From positions 1 through 61,182 of IMG/VR virus record IMGVR_UViG_3300030389_003077: a stretch of 61,182 bases of DNA; one strand, written 5' to 3'. Both the position numbers and the translations under genes were made by a program. Below are positions 3,422 to 22,823 of the stretch, piece by piece; the first letter of the stretch is position 1, and each line of letters opens with the position of its first letter. Source of the DNA: a virus (lineage: Duplodnaviria > Caudoviricetes). A model generated the notes under the pieces. It made no database searches, was not told where the DNA came from, and worked only from the letters and a program-made list of their open reading frames with translations.

Positions 3422-5499
3422 GCCTTAATTCTTTTACTATACATCCCTTTATTAGTATATCTTTTAACAAAAGGTGACGAAACTTTTATTTCTTTTTTAG
3501 GTTTTATATATTTTTGTGATGCTAGAAGTGCCAATGATGACGATATACTAGCATCGTATTTAGTTCTATTATCTATCTCAAATCTACTCCAATCATCTAG
3601 AAGCGTGTTAAAATAACATCTACCAATCTCTCCTGTATCTGAGTTATACCCTACATGATCGTATATATAACTTGCTATAGCTTCTGCCTGAGCATTAATA
3701 ACTGCAGCACCTGATCCAGGTATACCTTTGGTCTTTTGTTTACCTCTACTCCATTCTGTATGAGTCATATCGGGTCTATCCATTAAGTATTCATAATATC
3801 CTCTGTTTTCAAAATACTTTAGTATACCCACTTTATTATTCTCCACTAATATTTGACAACCATAAAACACGCACATCTTAATCATGTCTTCGTAAAATAT
3901 CTCCGCCTTAGGAGGTCTATTAATATACTCACACACAAACTGCATAGACGCATCGCTTGCCATACTAAACTTATGGAATACATGAGCAGCAGCATCAGAC
4001 CTTCTACCATCCGTAGTGGTATCATGATCATAAGGGTCACATCCTGCAACCAAAGCATCTGATTTACCAGGGAACTTCTTGCTATACCTAGAGGAGATAA
4101 CATTTTGATTATGTATCTCTGGAACCCAAGTAATTTCCCATTTACCTTTTTTATGAGGTATCCACATGACTTCGCTGTCCTGTATGCCATTCTTCCAAAC
4201 AAACTCACCCCTAGTTGTAGGGGTATTATTAACTTCGTTGTAATCCATCTGTTGATAGATTCTTTCGACATCAAATATACAACTTTGTGTGTCATTTCTA
4301 AATGCCTCCTCTACAGTAAAAGGAAACTGTCTTTTAAACTCAGACAATGCTGTGGTATCATTCTTTAAAGCATCCCTTCTGTTCTGTATATAATCTCTAG
4401 CTCCAATATCAATCATCATGTCATCAATACCCATAACAGGCTTATCTGGTGTATCTATAACACTGTAACCATACTCATCTATAAACCCCTCTAGATTATC
4501 ATAAGCAGGTATAAACAATTTATACAAACCACTTTTAGTCCTACCATTAAGATCTTTTTCAGACAAATCAGAATCGTAAAATATATCTTTAAACTCTGCA
4601 CCACCATCTTGTTGTTTGTTAGCAGTGGATCCCATCATACACTTTCCCACAACCTTTCTACCTAAAAGTAAACAAGTTTGAGTTACACCCCAGTTCTTCT
4701 TTATAGAGTTTTGCCCTGTCCATTTACCAGCTTCGTCATGTACTAAAAGGTTAAGCTTCATACCGTCATAACTATTATCAGCAGTATTCTTCCAATCTAT
4801 AATAGAATTAAGTGCTTCAGATTTTTCTATATGCTTTTGATTTTTAGTAATCTTTTTAGCAGGCTCTCTAAAAGCAAGCTCCACACGAGGATTACTAGAA
4901 CCATCTTGTATAGGCTGAAAAAAGAACGGGTAATTTCTATATATACGAACTACCTTGTCTGTAAACATTGTTTTAGCATCAGCACCTGTTTTGGATAACA
5001 AACCAAAGTTGCTGTCATACACTTGTGTAGCTTGATTTACTATCTCACTACTTGCCATGTATGAAAAACCACTACGCCTGTTTTTAAGAAAACACATACC
5101 GTATGAGTTTTTGTCTTTTTTACACGCTTCCCAAAAAATAAAGAACGTTCTATTAGCATCCCTGTAATCAGGATAACCAATATCTATTTTGCTCCACTGA
5201 AGAAACATATAATGAGACCCAGTGATATAAGTTGGAACACCATTATTGTAAAACCATAAACCCTCTTTTCTTCTTCTAAATTCTTCATCTATATAGTCTA
5301 CATAATCTGTAGCATTCTCCCTTGTCAATCCTTTAGGTAGATCTTGCCTGGTCCACCTCTGCTGCTTCTTAGGTAAGTTATGATATAATATATCTTTTTT
5401 ATATCTAGGTTTTTTAGGGATAACTATGTTTAAATTATCAAACTCTAGTACATCACCCTCACTACCATCTATTAAATATACTTTATCATTTCTTTGCAT
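3418..5499 (-). CDS. terL: Terminase large subunit
   Basis: Walker A-like KNRRSGFS, Walker B LLVHDEAGKW, GST coupling motif, RNase H-like GCDPYD nuclease; likely start ATG 5499. Confidence 0.92.
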   Translation of the reverse strand: MQRNDKVYLIDGSEGDVLEFDNLNIVIPKKPRYKKDILYHNLPKKQQRWTRQDLPKGLTRENATDYVDYIDEEFRRRKEGLWFYNNGVPTYITGSHYMFLQWSKIDIGYPDYRDANRTFFIFWEACKKDKNSYGMCFLKNRRSGFSYMASSEIVNQATQVYDSNFGLLSKTGADAKTMFTDKVVRIYRNYPFFFQPIQDGSSNPRVELAFREPAKKITKNQKHIEKSEALNSIIDWKNTADNSYDGMKLNLLVHDEAGKWTGQNSIKKNWGVTQTCLLLGRKVVGKCMMGSTANKQQDGGAEFKDIFYDSDLSEKDLNGRTKSGLYKLFIPAYDNLEGFIDEYGYSVIDTPDKPVMGIDDMMIDIGARDYIQNRRDALKNDTTALSEFKRQFPFTVEEAFRNDTQSCIFDVERIYQQMDYNEVNNTPTTRGEFVWKNGIQDSEVMWIPHKKGKWEITWVPEIHNQNVISSRYSKKFPGKSDALVAGCDPYDHDTTTDGRRSDAAAHVFHKFSMASDASMQFVCEYINRPPKAEIFYEDMIKMCVFYGCQILVENNKVGILKYFENRGYYEYLMDRPDMTHTEWSRGKQKTKGIPGSGAAVINAQAEAIASYIYDHVGYNSDTGEIGRCYFNTLLDDWSRFEIDNRTKYDASISSSLALLASQKYIKPKKEIKVSSPFVKRYTNKGMYSKRIKA

Positions 5500-18968: not shown

Positions 18969-19364
18969 ATGGCAACAGTAACAACAAAATTAACAATATC
19001 AAGTTCAGACTTAACGTCTCAAGCTCTAAGTATTGCTGTATCTAAATCTATAACAGCTACACACACAAGTGGTCTTGCTCGTGCTGCTGTAACTTCTACA
19101 GCTCAAGGCACAGCATCTGGTCAGGTAACTTTATATACAGCTTCTGACTTTGTAGCTGGTTCTTATCTATATGTTAAGAATACAGATACTACAGCTACAG
19201 ACTATATATATGTTTATGCTGATGACTCAGCAGACTCTACAATACTAAGACTTGGTGGTGGTGAGTTTTCAATTATGCCTCTAAATGCAGGAGTTAGCTT
19301 TAAAGCTTTTACAGCTACTAGTGGGACTATAGTTGAGTTTATGGTATTTGGTACAGAGGCTTAA
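18969..19364 (+). CDS. Putative virion structural/decoration protein
   Basis: 131 aa, T/S/A-rich beta protein with YLYVKNTD, own promoter. Confidence 0.55.
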   Translation: MATVTTKLTISSSDLTSQALSIAVSKSITATHTSGLARAAVTSTAQGTASGQVTLYTASDFVAGSYLYVKNTDTTATDYIYVYADDSADSTILRLGGGEFSIMPLNAGVSFKAFTATSGTIVEFMVFGTEA

Positions 19365-19741
19365 GATTTGTCAGAATACTTCTTTTGATTCTCACTCTTT
19401 AGCCTTCTACACTCATCACATCGACACCCTTTTCTATAAGCTGTTAGTGAAGGACAAGGTTTACCCTGTCTATTCCTAGCAGCACTATAGTTGCAACTTT
19501 TGTGAGAGAAAGCAATATTATTAATATCAAAAAATAAACCCTTTGGATCTTCTGAATGAAGCCAAGGGGTTTTGTGTTCTATAGTGAAATCGTCACCACA
19601 ATCTATTTCTGCACCACACTGATAACACCAGTTTAAGTCCAGTCTTTTAGCAAACTCAAATAAAAGGTTTTTCTTAAGTCTGTTTGAAGCAGTACTAGGA
19701 TCCATTCCTAGCTGTTGTTTTTTAGTGTTTTTAATAGTCAT
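19361..19741 (-). CDS. HNH endonuclease-like zinc-binding protein
   Basis: CYQC...TIEH...SHKSCN plus C-terminal CRCDEC. Confidence 0.75.
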   Translation of the reverse strand: MTIKNTKKQQLGMDPSTASNRLKKNLLFEFAKRLDLNWCYQCGAEIDCGDDFTIEHKTPWLHSEDPKGLFFDINNIAFSHKSCNYSAARNRQGKPCPSLTAYRKGCRCDECRRLKSENQKKYSDKS

Positions 19742-19853: not shown

Positions 19854-19963
19854 TTCTTTAATTTATTTAACGTTCCATATACATAAGTATCTTGAAGCTT
19901 TTTATTTTTAGGAAACTTCTTCTTTGCTCTTTTGTATAACTTTTTCTTTAAAGCCTTAGGCAT
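19850..19963 (-). CDS. Small basic protein (37 aa)
   Basis: MPKALKKKLYKRAKKKFPKNKKLQDTYVYGTLNKLKK; coupled to both neighbours. Confidence 0.6.
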   Translation of the reverse strand: MPKALKKKLYKRAKKKFPKNKKLQDTYVYGTLNKLKK

Positions 19964-20249
19964 TTCTACTTCTTCTTATAGACTCTTTACCACGCTTAAA
20001 TATACTAGCAACCTCACTTTTACCCATAACTTTAGCACGCTGCTCACCTACAGTCAATATCTGTATCTTTCTAGCGTATGGTTTACTAATACGTTTTACT
20101 TTGGCTACAGTTGCTCTAGCGTCTGCAGGAGTTGCAAACTTAATACTAACAGTATCTTTAGGGTTTTCATCCGTATATAGTCGTCTACCAGAACCCTTAG
20201 GCTTTTTACCAGTACCAACCTTAGGATCTCTCTTTATTGCTTTAGGCAT
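19956..20249 (-). CDS. Basic phage protein
   Basis: Likely start ATG 20249 (MPKAIKRDPKVGTGKKPK); RRLYTDENPKDTV motif. Confidence 0.65.
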   Translation of the reverse strand: MPKAIKRDPKVGTGKKPKGSGRRLYTDENPKDTVSIKFATPADARATVAKVKRISKPYARKIQILTVGEQRAKVMGKSEVASIFKRGKESIRRSRNA

Positions 20250-20415
20250 CTCTATGTTGTTCTTGAATCTCGAACTTAGCTGTAAGACTAGCTCCAGCAT
20301 GAGGAACGAAAGCACCCTTGTGACGCATCAAAGTATATCTGTTTACACCTTTACGCATCCAGTGAAACCCCTGAGGAGCTCTAACACTTTTTGTTTTTCT
20401 AACTGATTTAGGCAT
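20242..20415 (-). CDS. Small basic phage protein
   Basis: Likely start ATG 20415 (MPKSVRK...APQGFHWM). Confidence 0.6.
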   Translation of the reverse strand: MPKSVRKTKSVRAPQGFHWMRKGVNRYTLMRHKGAFVPHAGASLTAKFEIQEQHRDA

Positions 20416-20839
20416 ATTGTGATTTTTTGCTAAGATAAAAAAATTCTGAGAAGTAAAAAAGGTTGGGGTTATATATGTATGCAGGGGTCCACGCGCACAT
20501 GCCGAAACGCAAATCCAAAAACGGGGTACCCAAACCAAAATCGTATACATAAAATACAAATGTCGTTTTCTATTTCCGTCCATGAGACTAACTATCTCTG
20601 ACTATCTACTATAAACCTACGGACTAATCGAAACATTCTCTTATATAGTACCTAAGCCACCTTAAAGGAGACGTATCTCAGTTACTATTGTGAGCAAGTA
20701 CTAGGGAGGGAGGGCATAATATCCCACATTATACCACTATTCCCCACACCCTACAATTATGTATCAAAAAAGTTTACACCTTGAACTCCTTAATACAAGT
20801 CCGATTAAAGAACTACTTGTGACATTTGTTGTAAAAAAA

Positions 20840-20872
20840 TTTGACACGTATTGTTTTTTATTCTTATCTTTG
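20840..20872 (+). promoter_or_regulatory. Consensus Bacteroidota promoter (-33 TTTG, -7 TATCTTTG)
   Basis: TTTG 20840-20843, 21-nt spacer, TATCTTTG 20865-20872. Confidence 0.8.
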
Positions 20873-20877
20873 TTCCC

Positions 20878-21689
20878 AACAATGATTCAATATCGTTGTC
20901 GTTCTTTACATACTGATTCAGACTCGCTATAACGCAGGAAGCCGATACAAGAGCAGTTGAGAATATCCTCTCAAGTATCAATAGGTTAGTAAGCAAGAGT
21001 CTGACTACCAAGTTCCCACGAGAGATAGCATCAAAGGGTTGTTGAGGTAGCACATCAGAATAGACCTTTAGCTTGATTGAGGGTCGTGAGTCTTAGTAAC
21101 GATACATAGCAGTAGCATTGCCTACCCAAGTGTATTAGAGCAATAATTCAATCAGCGTTTGTCAGTAGCGAATCAACTGAACGGAAACCACTGCCGACAA
21201 CTAGGTGGACTTGGATAGACCAATAGGCTATCATCAAGTTAGGTAAAGCACCATAGGGCAATCCAATAAGATTGCATACCGATTAATATGGGAAGTCTAT
21301 CAGAGGGGACACCGATGATATGTACTGAGTAATGTAGCAGTATGTTGATAGGTGTGAGAGTTAGTGACAGATACTCTGAAGTAAGATAGACACCACGCCA
21401 ATGGTTTGTTAGACAGACCAAGTAGGGCGTGTTTAATACTACTAAAAAACTAACTGATTTGATGGGACAATGCAAGGGCTACTCGCAGTAGCTTAATATG
21501 GTGGTGCTTGAGCCTACCTTGCAGAATCTCTTTACGGGAATGTACTGGTTGCCCAAATAAATATGATAGGGGCGTACATGTTTGAACGAGAGTAATCGGT
21601 TGTTAATCCTTATGTTCAGGTATGAGACGACTAACGCTGCAGATGAGCAGGAAGTTAACATAGTGGTTCGATTCCACTAATTCCCACTA
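20878..21689 (+). ncRNA. Large ornate structured ncRNA (~810 nt; GOLLD-like size/class, family unconfirmed)
   Basis: No credible ORF, raised GC, many local and long-range helices including crossing ones, AGUA/GAA loop-E motifs, tRNA-like 3' domain. Confidence 0.78.
20880..20915 (+). promoter_or_regulatory. boxB-like hairpin plus boxA-like antitermination element
   Basis: CAATGAT/ATCGTTG hairpin then GTTCTTTACATACTG, resembling rRNA-leader boxA. Confidence 0.55.
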
Positions 21690-21705
21690 ACTAAACAATT
21701 ACATT

Positions 21706-21873
21706 ATGTTGATTTTACCAATGTACACAGAGCAAGAAAGAGAAGAAATGAAGCCATATCTTGACCAATTAATCCAATGGTTAGATAAAAACGAACACTT
21801 AAAGGATACTGAAGAATACAAGCTTAAATATTCAGAAGCAGAAGGTGTTTATGAAACAATTTACGATTTGTAA
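21706..21873 (+). CDS. Early hypothetical protein (55 aa)
   Basis: MLILPMYTEQEREEMKPYLD...; first ORF after the ncRNA; below track cutoff. Confidence 0.6.
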   Translation: MLILPMYTEQEREEMKPYLDQLIQWLDKNEHLKDTEEYKLKYSEAEGVYETIYDL

Positions 21874-21909
21874 ACCCAAACAAATAGAAACTCTTAAAAT
21901 TATATAACA

Positions 21910-22107
21910 ATGGCAAAGAAAGAAGAAGACTACTTTTATAATGAGTATGGCGAAAGGGTAAGCTTCAATGATTCCCTAAAACCTTATCTTGAGAAAGCAA
22001 GAAAAAGACAACAAGAGGAAGACTCTTGGAATAGGTTTGTAAGAAAACAAGATGAGAAAGAAAAAAATAGAAAGCGTAAACTAAACAATACGAAGAATAA
22101 AGGTTAA
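21910..22107 (+). CDS. Early hypothetical protein
   Basis: 65 aa, A-rich leader; stop codon lies inside hammerhead stem I. Confidence 0.65.
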   Translation: MAKKEEDYFYNEYGERVSFNDSLKPYLEKARKRQQEEDSWNRFVRKQDEKEKNRKRKLNNTKNKG

Positions 22108-22157
22108 CTGATGAGGATTTAATATCCGAAACCTTGTCTTAGGGCAAGGTCTTAACC
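22102..22157 (+). ncRNA. Type I hammerhead ribozyme
   Basis: GGTTAA-CTGATGA-GGAT/ATCC-GAAA-CCTTGTC/GGCAAGG-TC-TTAACC: complete core, three stems, GUC cleavage triplet (cut after 22151). Confidence 0.92.
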
Positions 22158-22171
22158 AAACATTAGAAATT

Positions 22172-22432
22172 ATGAAATCAAAAAACAAATTAGAGTTACT
22201 AAAAGAATTAATAGAGGCTACTGAAGTTTATTCTAAAAAAGTAGAAAGTTTAATTAATACAAAAGAACAAGTCGGTAGTGAGTTTGATGACATCATCTTA
22301 CAACCAAATCAAGACAGACGTTATCAAACCAGCATGAGAATAGAGTTAATGTTTTTACTTAAAAGATTAAAAGTTCAAAATTGGGATTTCATTAATAGTC
22401 AGATGATGATTGAAATAGAAAATGCTAAATAA
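22172..22432 (+). CDS. Early hypothetical protein
   Basis: TAGAAATTATG leader. Confidence 0.7.
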   Translation: MKSKNKLELLKELIEATEVYSKKVESLINTKEQVGSEFDDIILQPNQDRRYQTSMRIELMFLLKRLKVQNWDFINSQMMIEIENAK

Positions 22433-22445
22433 AAAAATAGAAACT

Positions 22446-22823
22446 ATGGAAACTATGTTTAAACAAGAGAAACAACTAAGAGTACTAGCCAAGTGGCTAA
22501 AAGAATCAGATGACGGCATAGATGCTTATACTGACGGAGATATGGAAAGAGCAGTTAAGTATGGTGTACAAGAATGTATGCATAAAATAGGCGACTACCT
22601 TGAAGAAATATTAGATATGAATGATGAACAATTAATTAAAGAGATGGAAACAACTAACAAACAATCAAAATATATCGTTTGGGTAGGTGGTATACCTAAT
22701 CACTTTGACAACTTATTAGATGCCCAAGTACATAAAAAAGAATGGGAAGATGAGGGCTATGATGATGTAGTAATTGAAGCAATATTTAAAGTTAATGGTA
22801 ACGAACATCATTTATTCTGTTAA
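22446..22823 (+). CDS. Early hypothetical protein
   Basis: Start moved to TAGAAACTATG at 22446; C-terminal YIVWVGG...GYDDV motif. Confidence 0.7.
   Translation: METMFKQEKQLRVLAKWLKESDDGIDAYTDGDMERAVKYGVQECMHKIGDYLEEILDMNDEQLIKEMETTNKQSKYIVWVGGIPNHFDNLLDAQVHKKEWEDEGYDDVVIEAIFKVNGNEHHLFC

Follow-up and report, generated by a model that had tools for sequence, protein, structure and literature searches.

What occupies the non-coding stretch at positions 20878-21689 of the phage record IMGVR_UViG_3300030389_003077, where a block of rightward genes begins? The IMG/VR virus record was analysed over its whole length (61,182 bp, hereafter the window; completeness estimated at 97%), and an earlier note on this DNA had read the stretch as one RNA of about 810 nt. 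We find a composite instead. Positions 20878-21535 of the + strand belong to a new family of large structured non-coding RNA (ncRNA), about 590-660 nt in length and about 660 nt in the window, and a separate tRNA-like module of about 150 nt stands behind it. In most relatives a type-P1 twister ribozyme takes the place of this module. We think it probable that the RNA is freed by this exchangeable 3´-processing cassette and then works in trans as a stable, folded molecule.

A family of large structured RNAs

The neighbouring 255-aa protein, used as a query, led to 80 related loci (relatives are given here by L numbers), three of which contained the RNA region; a 362-aa tail protein led to three loci only, none of them useful. 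Exact-pattern scans with invariant stretches over viral and metagenome contigs, with confirmation by blastn and nhmmer, supplied further homologs. Of the 32 pattern matches in metagenomes, 30 were confirmed by nhmmer (L111 and L119 were not), and a scan with the short 5´ motif returned at least 115 matches, mostly chance, with L170 and L231 real among the matches listed. The scan of genome contigs gave two stretches (L128, L129) where about three chance matches were expected, and nhmmer confirmed neither, so that no bacterial or archaeal species genome was shown to carry the RNA. Blastn in distant mode found no match to 20600-21720 in 50,697 cultured-phage records. Every homolog was found on an uncultured virus contig or a metagenome contig of marine or seawater origin, and the 37 full-length copies include 25 distinct sequences, which were aligned (alignment A1). 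Among these 25 homologs no open reading frame (ORF) keeps its position, frame or length, the longest on the + strand having 67 aa; a coding region was therefore rejected, and on this point the earlier note was right.

Covariation among the 25 sequences carries the case for an RNA. Our conservative structure, in which only alignment-backed helices were retained, has 88 pairs in 17 helices; 98.9% of its 2,149 cells are paired, and 42 pairs (170 cells) change on both sides. None of 500 shuffles reached this covariation, and sliding the partner strand by 1-3 columns left 1-4 pairs. RNAalifold independently returned 97 pairs, 41 of them compensatory, and the many conserved G-U pairs fix the + strand. 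We regard it as almost certain that these sequences form a structured RNA family, and the proposal that a large, conserved ncRNA heads the rightward gene block is borne out by this strong covariation. The RNA region also has a GC content of 0.39-0.43, as against 0.28-0.33 in the genes to its right. Its parts are the following.

20879..20899, + strand: 5´-terminal hairpin ACAAUGAU / AUCGUUGU, predicted in 16 of 16 distinct 5´ ends
20900..20917, + strand: single-stranded motif CGUUCUUUACAUACUGAU, nearly invariant in the columns of A1
20918..21058, + strand: variable 5´ domain, closed by UCAGA(CUC)/(GAG)UCUGA, 20918-20925 with 20997-21004
21059..21432, + strand: conserved multi-helix core of about 375 nt, from A1 covariation and the 88-pair structure
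21073-79/21149-55, 21101-07/21130-36, 21112-15/21122-25 and 21158-66/21176-85, + strand: core helices of the 88-pair structure
21188-92/21204-08, 21209-17/21229-39, 21251-55/21287-91 and 21256-58/21274-76, + strand: further core helices of that structure
21295-301/21385-91, 21320-27/21338-45, 21357-61/21373-77 and 21394-99/21426-31, + strand: remaining core helices listed from it
21452..21465, + strand: conserved 3´ strand (A)CUGAUUUGAUGG, in 25 of 25 homologs and in the different-core variants L070 and L231
21466..21529, + strand: 3´-terminal hairpin TGCAAGG 21471 / CCTTGCA 21517 with conserved loop UUAAUAUGGUGGUGCUUGAGCC, in 7 of 25 homologs; its outer pairs covary

The stems of the 5´-terminal hairpin vary among relatives (GCAGU/ACUGC, GAGCAG/CUGCUC, GGAG/CUCC, GAUGUCA/UGACAUC), and the hairpin covaries. 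At the other end, the remaining 18 of the 25 homologs have a short G+C hairpin in place of the long one, followed by a short U run. The helix closing the variable 5´ domain is 95-96% paired, with a compensatory change from G-C to A-U in L094; we preferred this pairing, UCAGA/UCUGA, which shows a double change, to a closing helix UCAGA/UUUGA. Inside this domain, unrelated sequence has been substituted in different lineages, and RNAalifold found no consensus in the variable sub-regions because MAFFT was unable to align them. L121 (5347-6049) and L118 (795-1497, - strand) carry about 27 nt of extra, hairpin-like sequence in the variable 5´ domain, and the internal loop of their core is longer by 4 nt (ACUA), which illustrates that peripheral elements are gained freely. 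A core helix GCGU/ACGC, drawn by RNAalifold from the core alone, was rejected, since it conflicts with the covarying hairpin CACGCC/GGCGUG. In a tentative model, CAU..UGA of the motif at 20900-20917 would pair with 21459-21464 as a closing helix.

The earlier note had called the RNA ornate and pseudoknotted. Structured it is, and all 22 of the complementary strings listed there lie at or beside the positions given for them; yet only about half of the helices drawn there hold up when the 25 sequences are compared, and the crossing ones are unproven. CAGACTC/GAGTCTG (one compensatory change, 96% paired), GCAATC/GATTGC (compensatory at the base of the helix) and CACGCC/GGCGTG (two compensatory pairs) survive, as does TGCAAGG/CCTTGCA, which is compensatory, yet forms its hairpin in only 7 of 25 homologs. 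CTGAT/ATCAG is 81% paired, with 7-8 of 25 sequences unpaired at two pairs, and CCAAGT/ACTTGG, at 88%, has no compensation at all. We also gave up CATCAAGTTAG/CTGATTTGATG, which has an A:C mismatch in 11 of 25, TTGAGA/TCTCAA, which is 46% paired and confined to the window type, and TGGTTTGT/ACAGACCA, found in 4 of 25. The first four of these are either restricted to certain lineages or contradicted by A1. The pseudoknot TAGGCT/AGCCTA fell as well, being 79% paired among the seven sequences that have the 3´ hairpin. The second pseudoknot, AAGCACCAT/GTGGTGCTT, is 97% paired in the seven hairpin-bearing sequences, but its changes are one-sided only, and a competing local helix, CCAUA/UAUGG, shows a compensatory pair; for these reasons we rate it as possible.

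Close relatives differ in whether they carry the RNA, and in which form. L018 and L031 keep the upstream region and have neither the RNA nor the twister; there the promoter leads directly into the first ORF. L070 (3860-4240) and L231 (1650-2170, - strand) are variants that share the 5´ motif, the 3´ strand, the 3´ hairpin and the twister with the others but enclose a different, shorter core of about 280 nt. In L231 a window-type 5´ domain is combined with this second core type, and GUUCAUUGACAUA at the start of the second core in L070 and L231 resembles the 5´ motif of the first. The first downstream ORFs also vary between relatives. Since the RNA may be present, absent or built on a different core among close relatives, we regard it as an accessory module.

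Two alternative cassettes behind the RNA

In most relatives, the conserved stretch of about 55 nt behind the RNA is a type-P1 twister ribozyme (Rfam RF03160, model positions 1-68 aligned). It scores 39.5-44.7 bits (E 1e-7 to 3e-10) in five of six relatives tested, in L070 and in five whole records. Across 24 distinct copies, the 15 pairs of P1, P2, P4 and T1 are 99.7% paired. Five of the 15 are compensatory, including the T1 pseudoknot (AU in 16 copies, GC in 8); none of 500 shuffles reached the covariation score, and slid partners left 0-1 pairs. CAAG and UAAA align to the consensus, as does the UAA of the cleavage site. The relatives' cassette thus resembles type P1 in keeping UAA at the cleavage site together with P1, P2, P4 and T1, and differs from it in having no P3 and in its T1, which is UAC:GUA or UGC:GCA where the consensus has CCC:GGG. 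In L116, a RAGATH-1 hammerhead-like match lies about 350 nt downstream of the twister (1070-1144; 31.8 bits, E 0.013, below the cut-off), and in some relatives several cuts may be made in the early transcript.

The window itself has no twister, either at E ≤ 1 over its whole length or at E ≤ 10 locally. Its RNA runs through a short junction into the tRNA-like module.

21530..21535, + strand: junction CUUUAC, in register with the 5´ strand of P1 and the cleavage site (CCUUU^AA) of the relatives' twister (A1 columns 735-745, cmscan)
21536..21689, + strand: tRNA-like module; acceptor GGGAAU 21536-41 with AUUCCC 21680-85, discriminator A21686, then CUA
21662-78, + strand: T arm AGUGG-UUCGAUU-CCACU, stacked on the 6-bp acceptor; the sole Rfam-like piece

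The distribution of the two cassettes is either/or. Behind the 25 RNA homologs, the twister occurs 22 times and the tRNA-like module three times; none has both and none has neither. In nine related near-complete records, exactly one twister lies beside the RNA in each of the five carriers, and the four non-carriers have none. The different-core variants L070 and L231 also have the twister. The point at which the cassettes are swapped is the twister cleavage site, with CCUUU^AAAGC in one arrangement and CUCUUUAC|GGGAAU in the other, if the U^A step placed at CCUUU^AA is, as we take it to be, where twister cleaves.

The module (21536-21686) is not conserved in most homologs of the large RNA. Its homologs number five (the window, L120, L006, L130 and L131), and in L120 it again stands behind the same RNA. 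An acceptor sits on a T arm with a UUCGAUU-type loop, and the helices covary among the five homologs: three pairs of the acceptor are compensatory (GGGAAU/AUUCCC, GGAAGU/GCUUCC, GAAAGU/GCUUUC), one pair of the T stem is (GUGG/CCAC versus GUAG/CUAC), and two inner helices covary as well. The acceptor is closed in the minimum free energy (MFE) folds of L006 (z -2.3) and L120 (z -2.5), and the predicted folds of the module have a five-way junction and extra arms, with the canonical anticodon arm absent. ARAGORN called no tRNA or tmRNA gene in the window, and the Rfam tRNA model was unmatched at E ≤ 10 locally. Judged by its sequence, the element is tRNA-like and not a tRNA. Standalone modules of this kind lie between protein genes in L006 (416-536), L130 (- strand, about 330-480) and L131 (2010-2130), with no large RNA directly upstream.

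Promoter and RNA-library evidence

Just upstream of the RNA we read a candidate promoter of the type used by Bacteroidota.

20840..20872, + strand: Bacteroidota-type promoter, -33 element TTTG at 20840-20843 and -7 element TATCTTTG at 20865-20872, spacing 21 nt, read from the sequence

This call is based on TAnnTTTG/TTTG, which we take to be the Bacteroidota promoter consensus, and the predicted transcription start falls at about 20876-20880. The promoter region is conserved among relatives. A sigma-70 scan also flags TTGACA 20841 / TATCTT 20870 (10 of 12 matches). A second conserved element lies further upstream at 20765-20800, an A-run followed by GTTTAC..CTTG.., and is found in RNA-less relatives too (L018, about 4840-4880); a second promoter is one possible reading of it, a control site for the divergent region another.

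Contigs of relatives from four marine RNA libraries (three studies) map on 20863-21514. As contigs of relatives, not of this phage, they speak to presence only and not to strand, ends, level or timing. The four RNA runs gave no contigs on 20400-20860 and almost none on 21539-22090, and these gaps are uninformative because the relatives have less conserved flanks. The earlier note had supposed that the RNA is made at high level early in infection. The host-type promoter and the RNA-library contigs give this indirect support only.

Phage setting

The RNA locus is a divergence point, with small genes leading leftward on one side and small ORFs and replication genes rightward on the other; a protein-family scan places a DnaB helicase in the rightward block.

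19361-19741, - strand: HNH endonuclease ORF (PHROG 23251, E 2.5e-36), about 1.1 kb upstream of the large RNA
21706..21873, + strand: first ORF of the rightward block, 55 aa, from the ORF list, with no PHROG match

Overlapping small ORFs beside the HNH ORF (19956-20583) gave no family match. The capsid protein is about 28% identical to podovirus capsids of marine Flavobacteriia, namely those of Maribacter phage Panino, the Flavobacterium phage vB_FspP_elemo group and Cellulophaga phages, and the carriers of the RNA are a subset of uncultured marine phages distantly related to the podoviruses of Flavobacteriia. A 763-aa phage protein (10663-12954, - strand) has a C-terminal Por secretion system sorting domain (Pfam PF18962, E 1.9e-11), which is unusual in such a virion-region gene and is consistent with a Bacteroidota host.

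Proposed release and possible roles of the RNA

How might such an RNA be made? We lean towards a 3´-processing model, in which transcription by host RNA polymerase would start at the Bacteroidota-type promoter, the RNA would be the first product of the rightward block, and the cassette directly behind it would detach it from the mRNA that follows. The type-P1 twister of most relatives would cut at CCUUU^AA. In the window, host RNase P would cut the tRNA-like element before G21536, and RNase Z would cut behind the element. The terminal hairpins would protect the released RNA, which would act in trans as a stable fold, in the same niche as GOLLD and ROOL. Over evolution, a ribozyme and an RNase P substrate would have replaced each other as the obligatory cassette. 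The family, its fold, the two cassettes and the way they exclude each other are computational results; the start of transcription, the cuts by twister or RNase P, the stability of the RNA and any role in trans are inferred. With low confidence, and going by the example of GOLLD and ROOL, the function in trans might be RNA-only assembly, a scaffold or host takeover. A bolder proposal, which we offer tentatively and do not yet expect to hold in full, is that the family is a new giant-RNA class ranking with GOLLD and ROOL, equipped with interchangeable twister and RNase P-substrate cassettes, whose released RNA forms an RNA-only assembly or serves early host takeover.

Several observations weigh against the processing model or against parts of it. 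The single-sequence fold has a z-score of only about -2: the + strand MFE is -219.6 kcal/mol (z -1.99, with 0 of 20 shuffles as good), a modest gain, and the - strand gives z -1.00 (3 of 20 shuffles). The closing helix to 21459-21464 that RNAalifold draws has one-sided changes only, and all tertiary contacts are conjectural on the alignment evidence. All twister matches lie under the Rfam cut-off of 67.2 bits, which we attribute to the missing P3 and the different T1; one relative (L104) has no twister match at E ≤ 5, and the twister covariation stems essentially from two sequence types. For the tRNA-like module the homologs number only five, ARAGORN does not call it and no CCA is encoded, and the standalone copies in L006, L130 and L131 suggest that it may have a general role in mRNA processing rather than one tied to the large RNA. 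Finally, the RNA-library data are contigs of relatives, from libraries of a kind that may contain DNA. One contig has at least 30 letters upstream of 20899, including CTTTG of the -7 box, so that transcription may start further upstream, or DNA may be present.

Among the other explanations, the one that survives best, although we consider it unlikely, is a leader function in cis, in which the RNA would head the early operon and work on the polymerase or on downstream expression (by processive antitermination or sensing, for example) and not as a free RNA. Its location between the promoter and the first ORFs suits a leader, and the G+C hairpin with a short U run that ends the RNA in 18 of 25 relatives recalls leader-terminator control. 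However, no terminator-like site was found on the + strand in window positions 20000-22500, the first downstream ORFs vary between relatives, and close relatives that share the upstream region lack the RNA wholly. A cleavage cassette, moreover, is always found behind the RNA and would detach the mRNA from it, and the size, swappable domains and terminal hairpins suit a free, stable RNA better.

We see a slight chance that the cassettes serve the mRNA behind them, whose 5´ end they would shape by punctuating a polycistronic transcript, and that the large RNA is a by-product or a selfish, mobile insert of an intron-like or homing kind. The strict tie of the twister to the RNA (five of five records with the RNA versus zero of four without it) speaks against punctuation, even though standalone tRNA-like modules lie between ORFs in L006, L130 and L131 and L116 has a hammerhead-like match further downstream. 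The presence/absence polymorphism and module swapping of the RNA among close relatives, and the HNH endonuclease ORF 1.1 kb upstream, would fit a selfish insert; no intron model is matched, though, no gene is interrupted, and the extensive compensatory change in the core would be unexpected for a by-product. A similarly small probability attaches to a phage ribonucleoprotein in which the RNA would serve as subunit or guide (compare OLE with its proteins, or a guide RNA with a nuclease) and would not be an RNA-only entity: invariant single strands such as CGUUCUUU, AAGUUAGGUAAAGCACC and ACGGAAAC could bind protein or nucleic acid, and the adjoining small ORFs have no known family, but a scan of 18 proteins of the window showed no reverse transcriptase, TnpB/IscB-like or Cas-like gene among those near the locus, and no co-varying partner gene was identified.

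If the bolder proposal, with its interchangeable cassettes, is right, it would give twister ribozymes a concrete biological job in phages. Bacterial ribozymes have been noted near phage genes, with their roles given as unknown in the available part of that report (PMC6765202). The pattern of one RNA always followed by either of two unrelated processing devices offers a testable answer to the purpose of self-cleaving ribozymes at such sites. In the literature found, no twister is described that forms the mature 3´ end of a large ncRNA.

Comparison with known RNAs

The RNA family is not described in the literature searched. A 2023 screen of IMG/VR (PMC10690425) reports, in the part available, 10,006 unnamed candidate structured RNAs, and its supplementary tables could list parts of the RNA or of the tRNA-like module. 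No family of Rfam 15 matches the window RNA at the gathering threshold. At E ≤ 10, positions 20400-22000 gave only a 17-nt T-arm match (tmRNA/tRNA) and a chance-level SNORD73 match (E 9.8); there was no match at E ≤ 1 over the whole window, and no large-RNA family at E ≤ 5 in six relatives. The Rfam models of GOLLD and of ROOL are unmatched in the window and in the six relatives, and in the window none of the models for group I or group II introns, RNase P RNA, 6S, OLE, HEARO or raiA is matched. A tmRNA with a tag frame was rejected: ARAGORN found none in the window, Rfam matched only the 17 nt of T arm (11.6 bits), and inspection by eye showed no convincing tag frame. The earlier note had offered a GOLLD-like or a new giant RNA; with GOLLD and ROOL unmatched in Rfam, it is the new-giant-RNA option that stands.

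The arrangement of RNA and module has counterparts elsewhere. MALAT1 is a long ncRNA of the eukaryotic nucleus whose mature 3´ end is made by RNase P cutting at an adjacent tRNA-like structure, mascRNA. The likeness lies in a long ncRNA directly 5´ of a tRNA-like structure; the difference, apart from the eukaryotic and nuclear setting of MALAT1, is that here the cleavage is our proposal and that a ribozyme fills the role in relatives. Our locus would parallel, in prokaryotes, the tRNA-like 3´-end formation of long ncRNAs. The stable species 1 and 2 RNAs of phage T4 and the tRNA-like domains of tmRNA have an acceptor-T-arm minihelix without a canonical anticodon arm. The module shares this minihelix, as well as a GG after the acceptor at a tmRNA-like distance. 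It differs in its predicted five-way junction, and there is no ARAGORN tmRNA in the window and no tag frame was seen.

To our knowledge, very few classes of bacterial or phage ncRNA longer than 500 nt are known, and each of them has rewarded structural study. The RNA described here combines strong covariation and modular, swappable domains with relatives in marine RNA libraries, and no relative was detected in Rfam 15. It resembles GOLLD, as described in the available part of PMC12286853, in its size (>600 nt), its ornate fold and its place in phages. In GOLLD the 5´ region varies, the rest is conserved and tRNA-type elements lie nearby; the layout here is analogous, with a variable 20918-21058 and a conserved 21059-21465, although ARAGORN calls no tRNA gene in the window and the neighbour is only a tRNA-like module. 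It differs from GOLLD in the marine, Flavobacteriia-type phages that carry it, in its promoter-proximal place at the head of an operon, in the cleavage cassette always behind it and in matching no Rfam model. ROOL, according to the same portion of that source (PMC12286853), is likewise about 600-660 nt, encoded by phages or prophages, multi-helix and without a known protein partner; its secondary structure is unrelated and its Rfam model unmatched. The RNA is thus new as a family, and as a kind, the large ornate ncRNA borne by phages, it joins GOLLD and ROOL.

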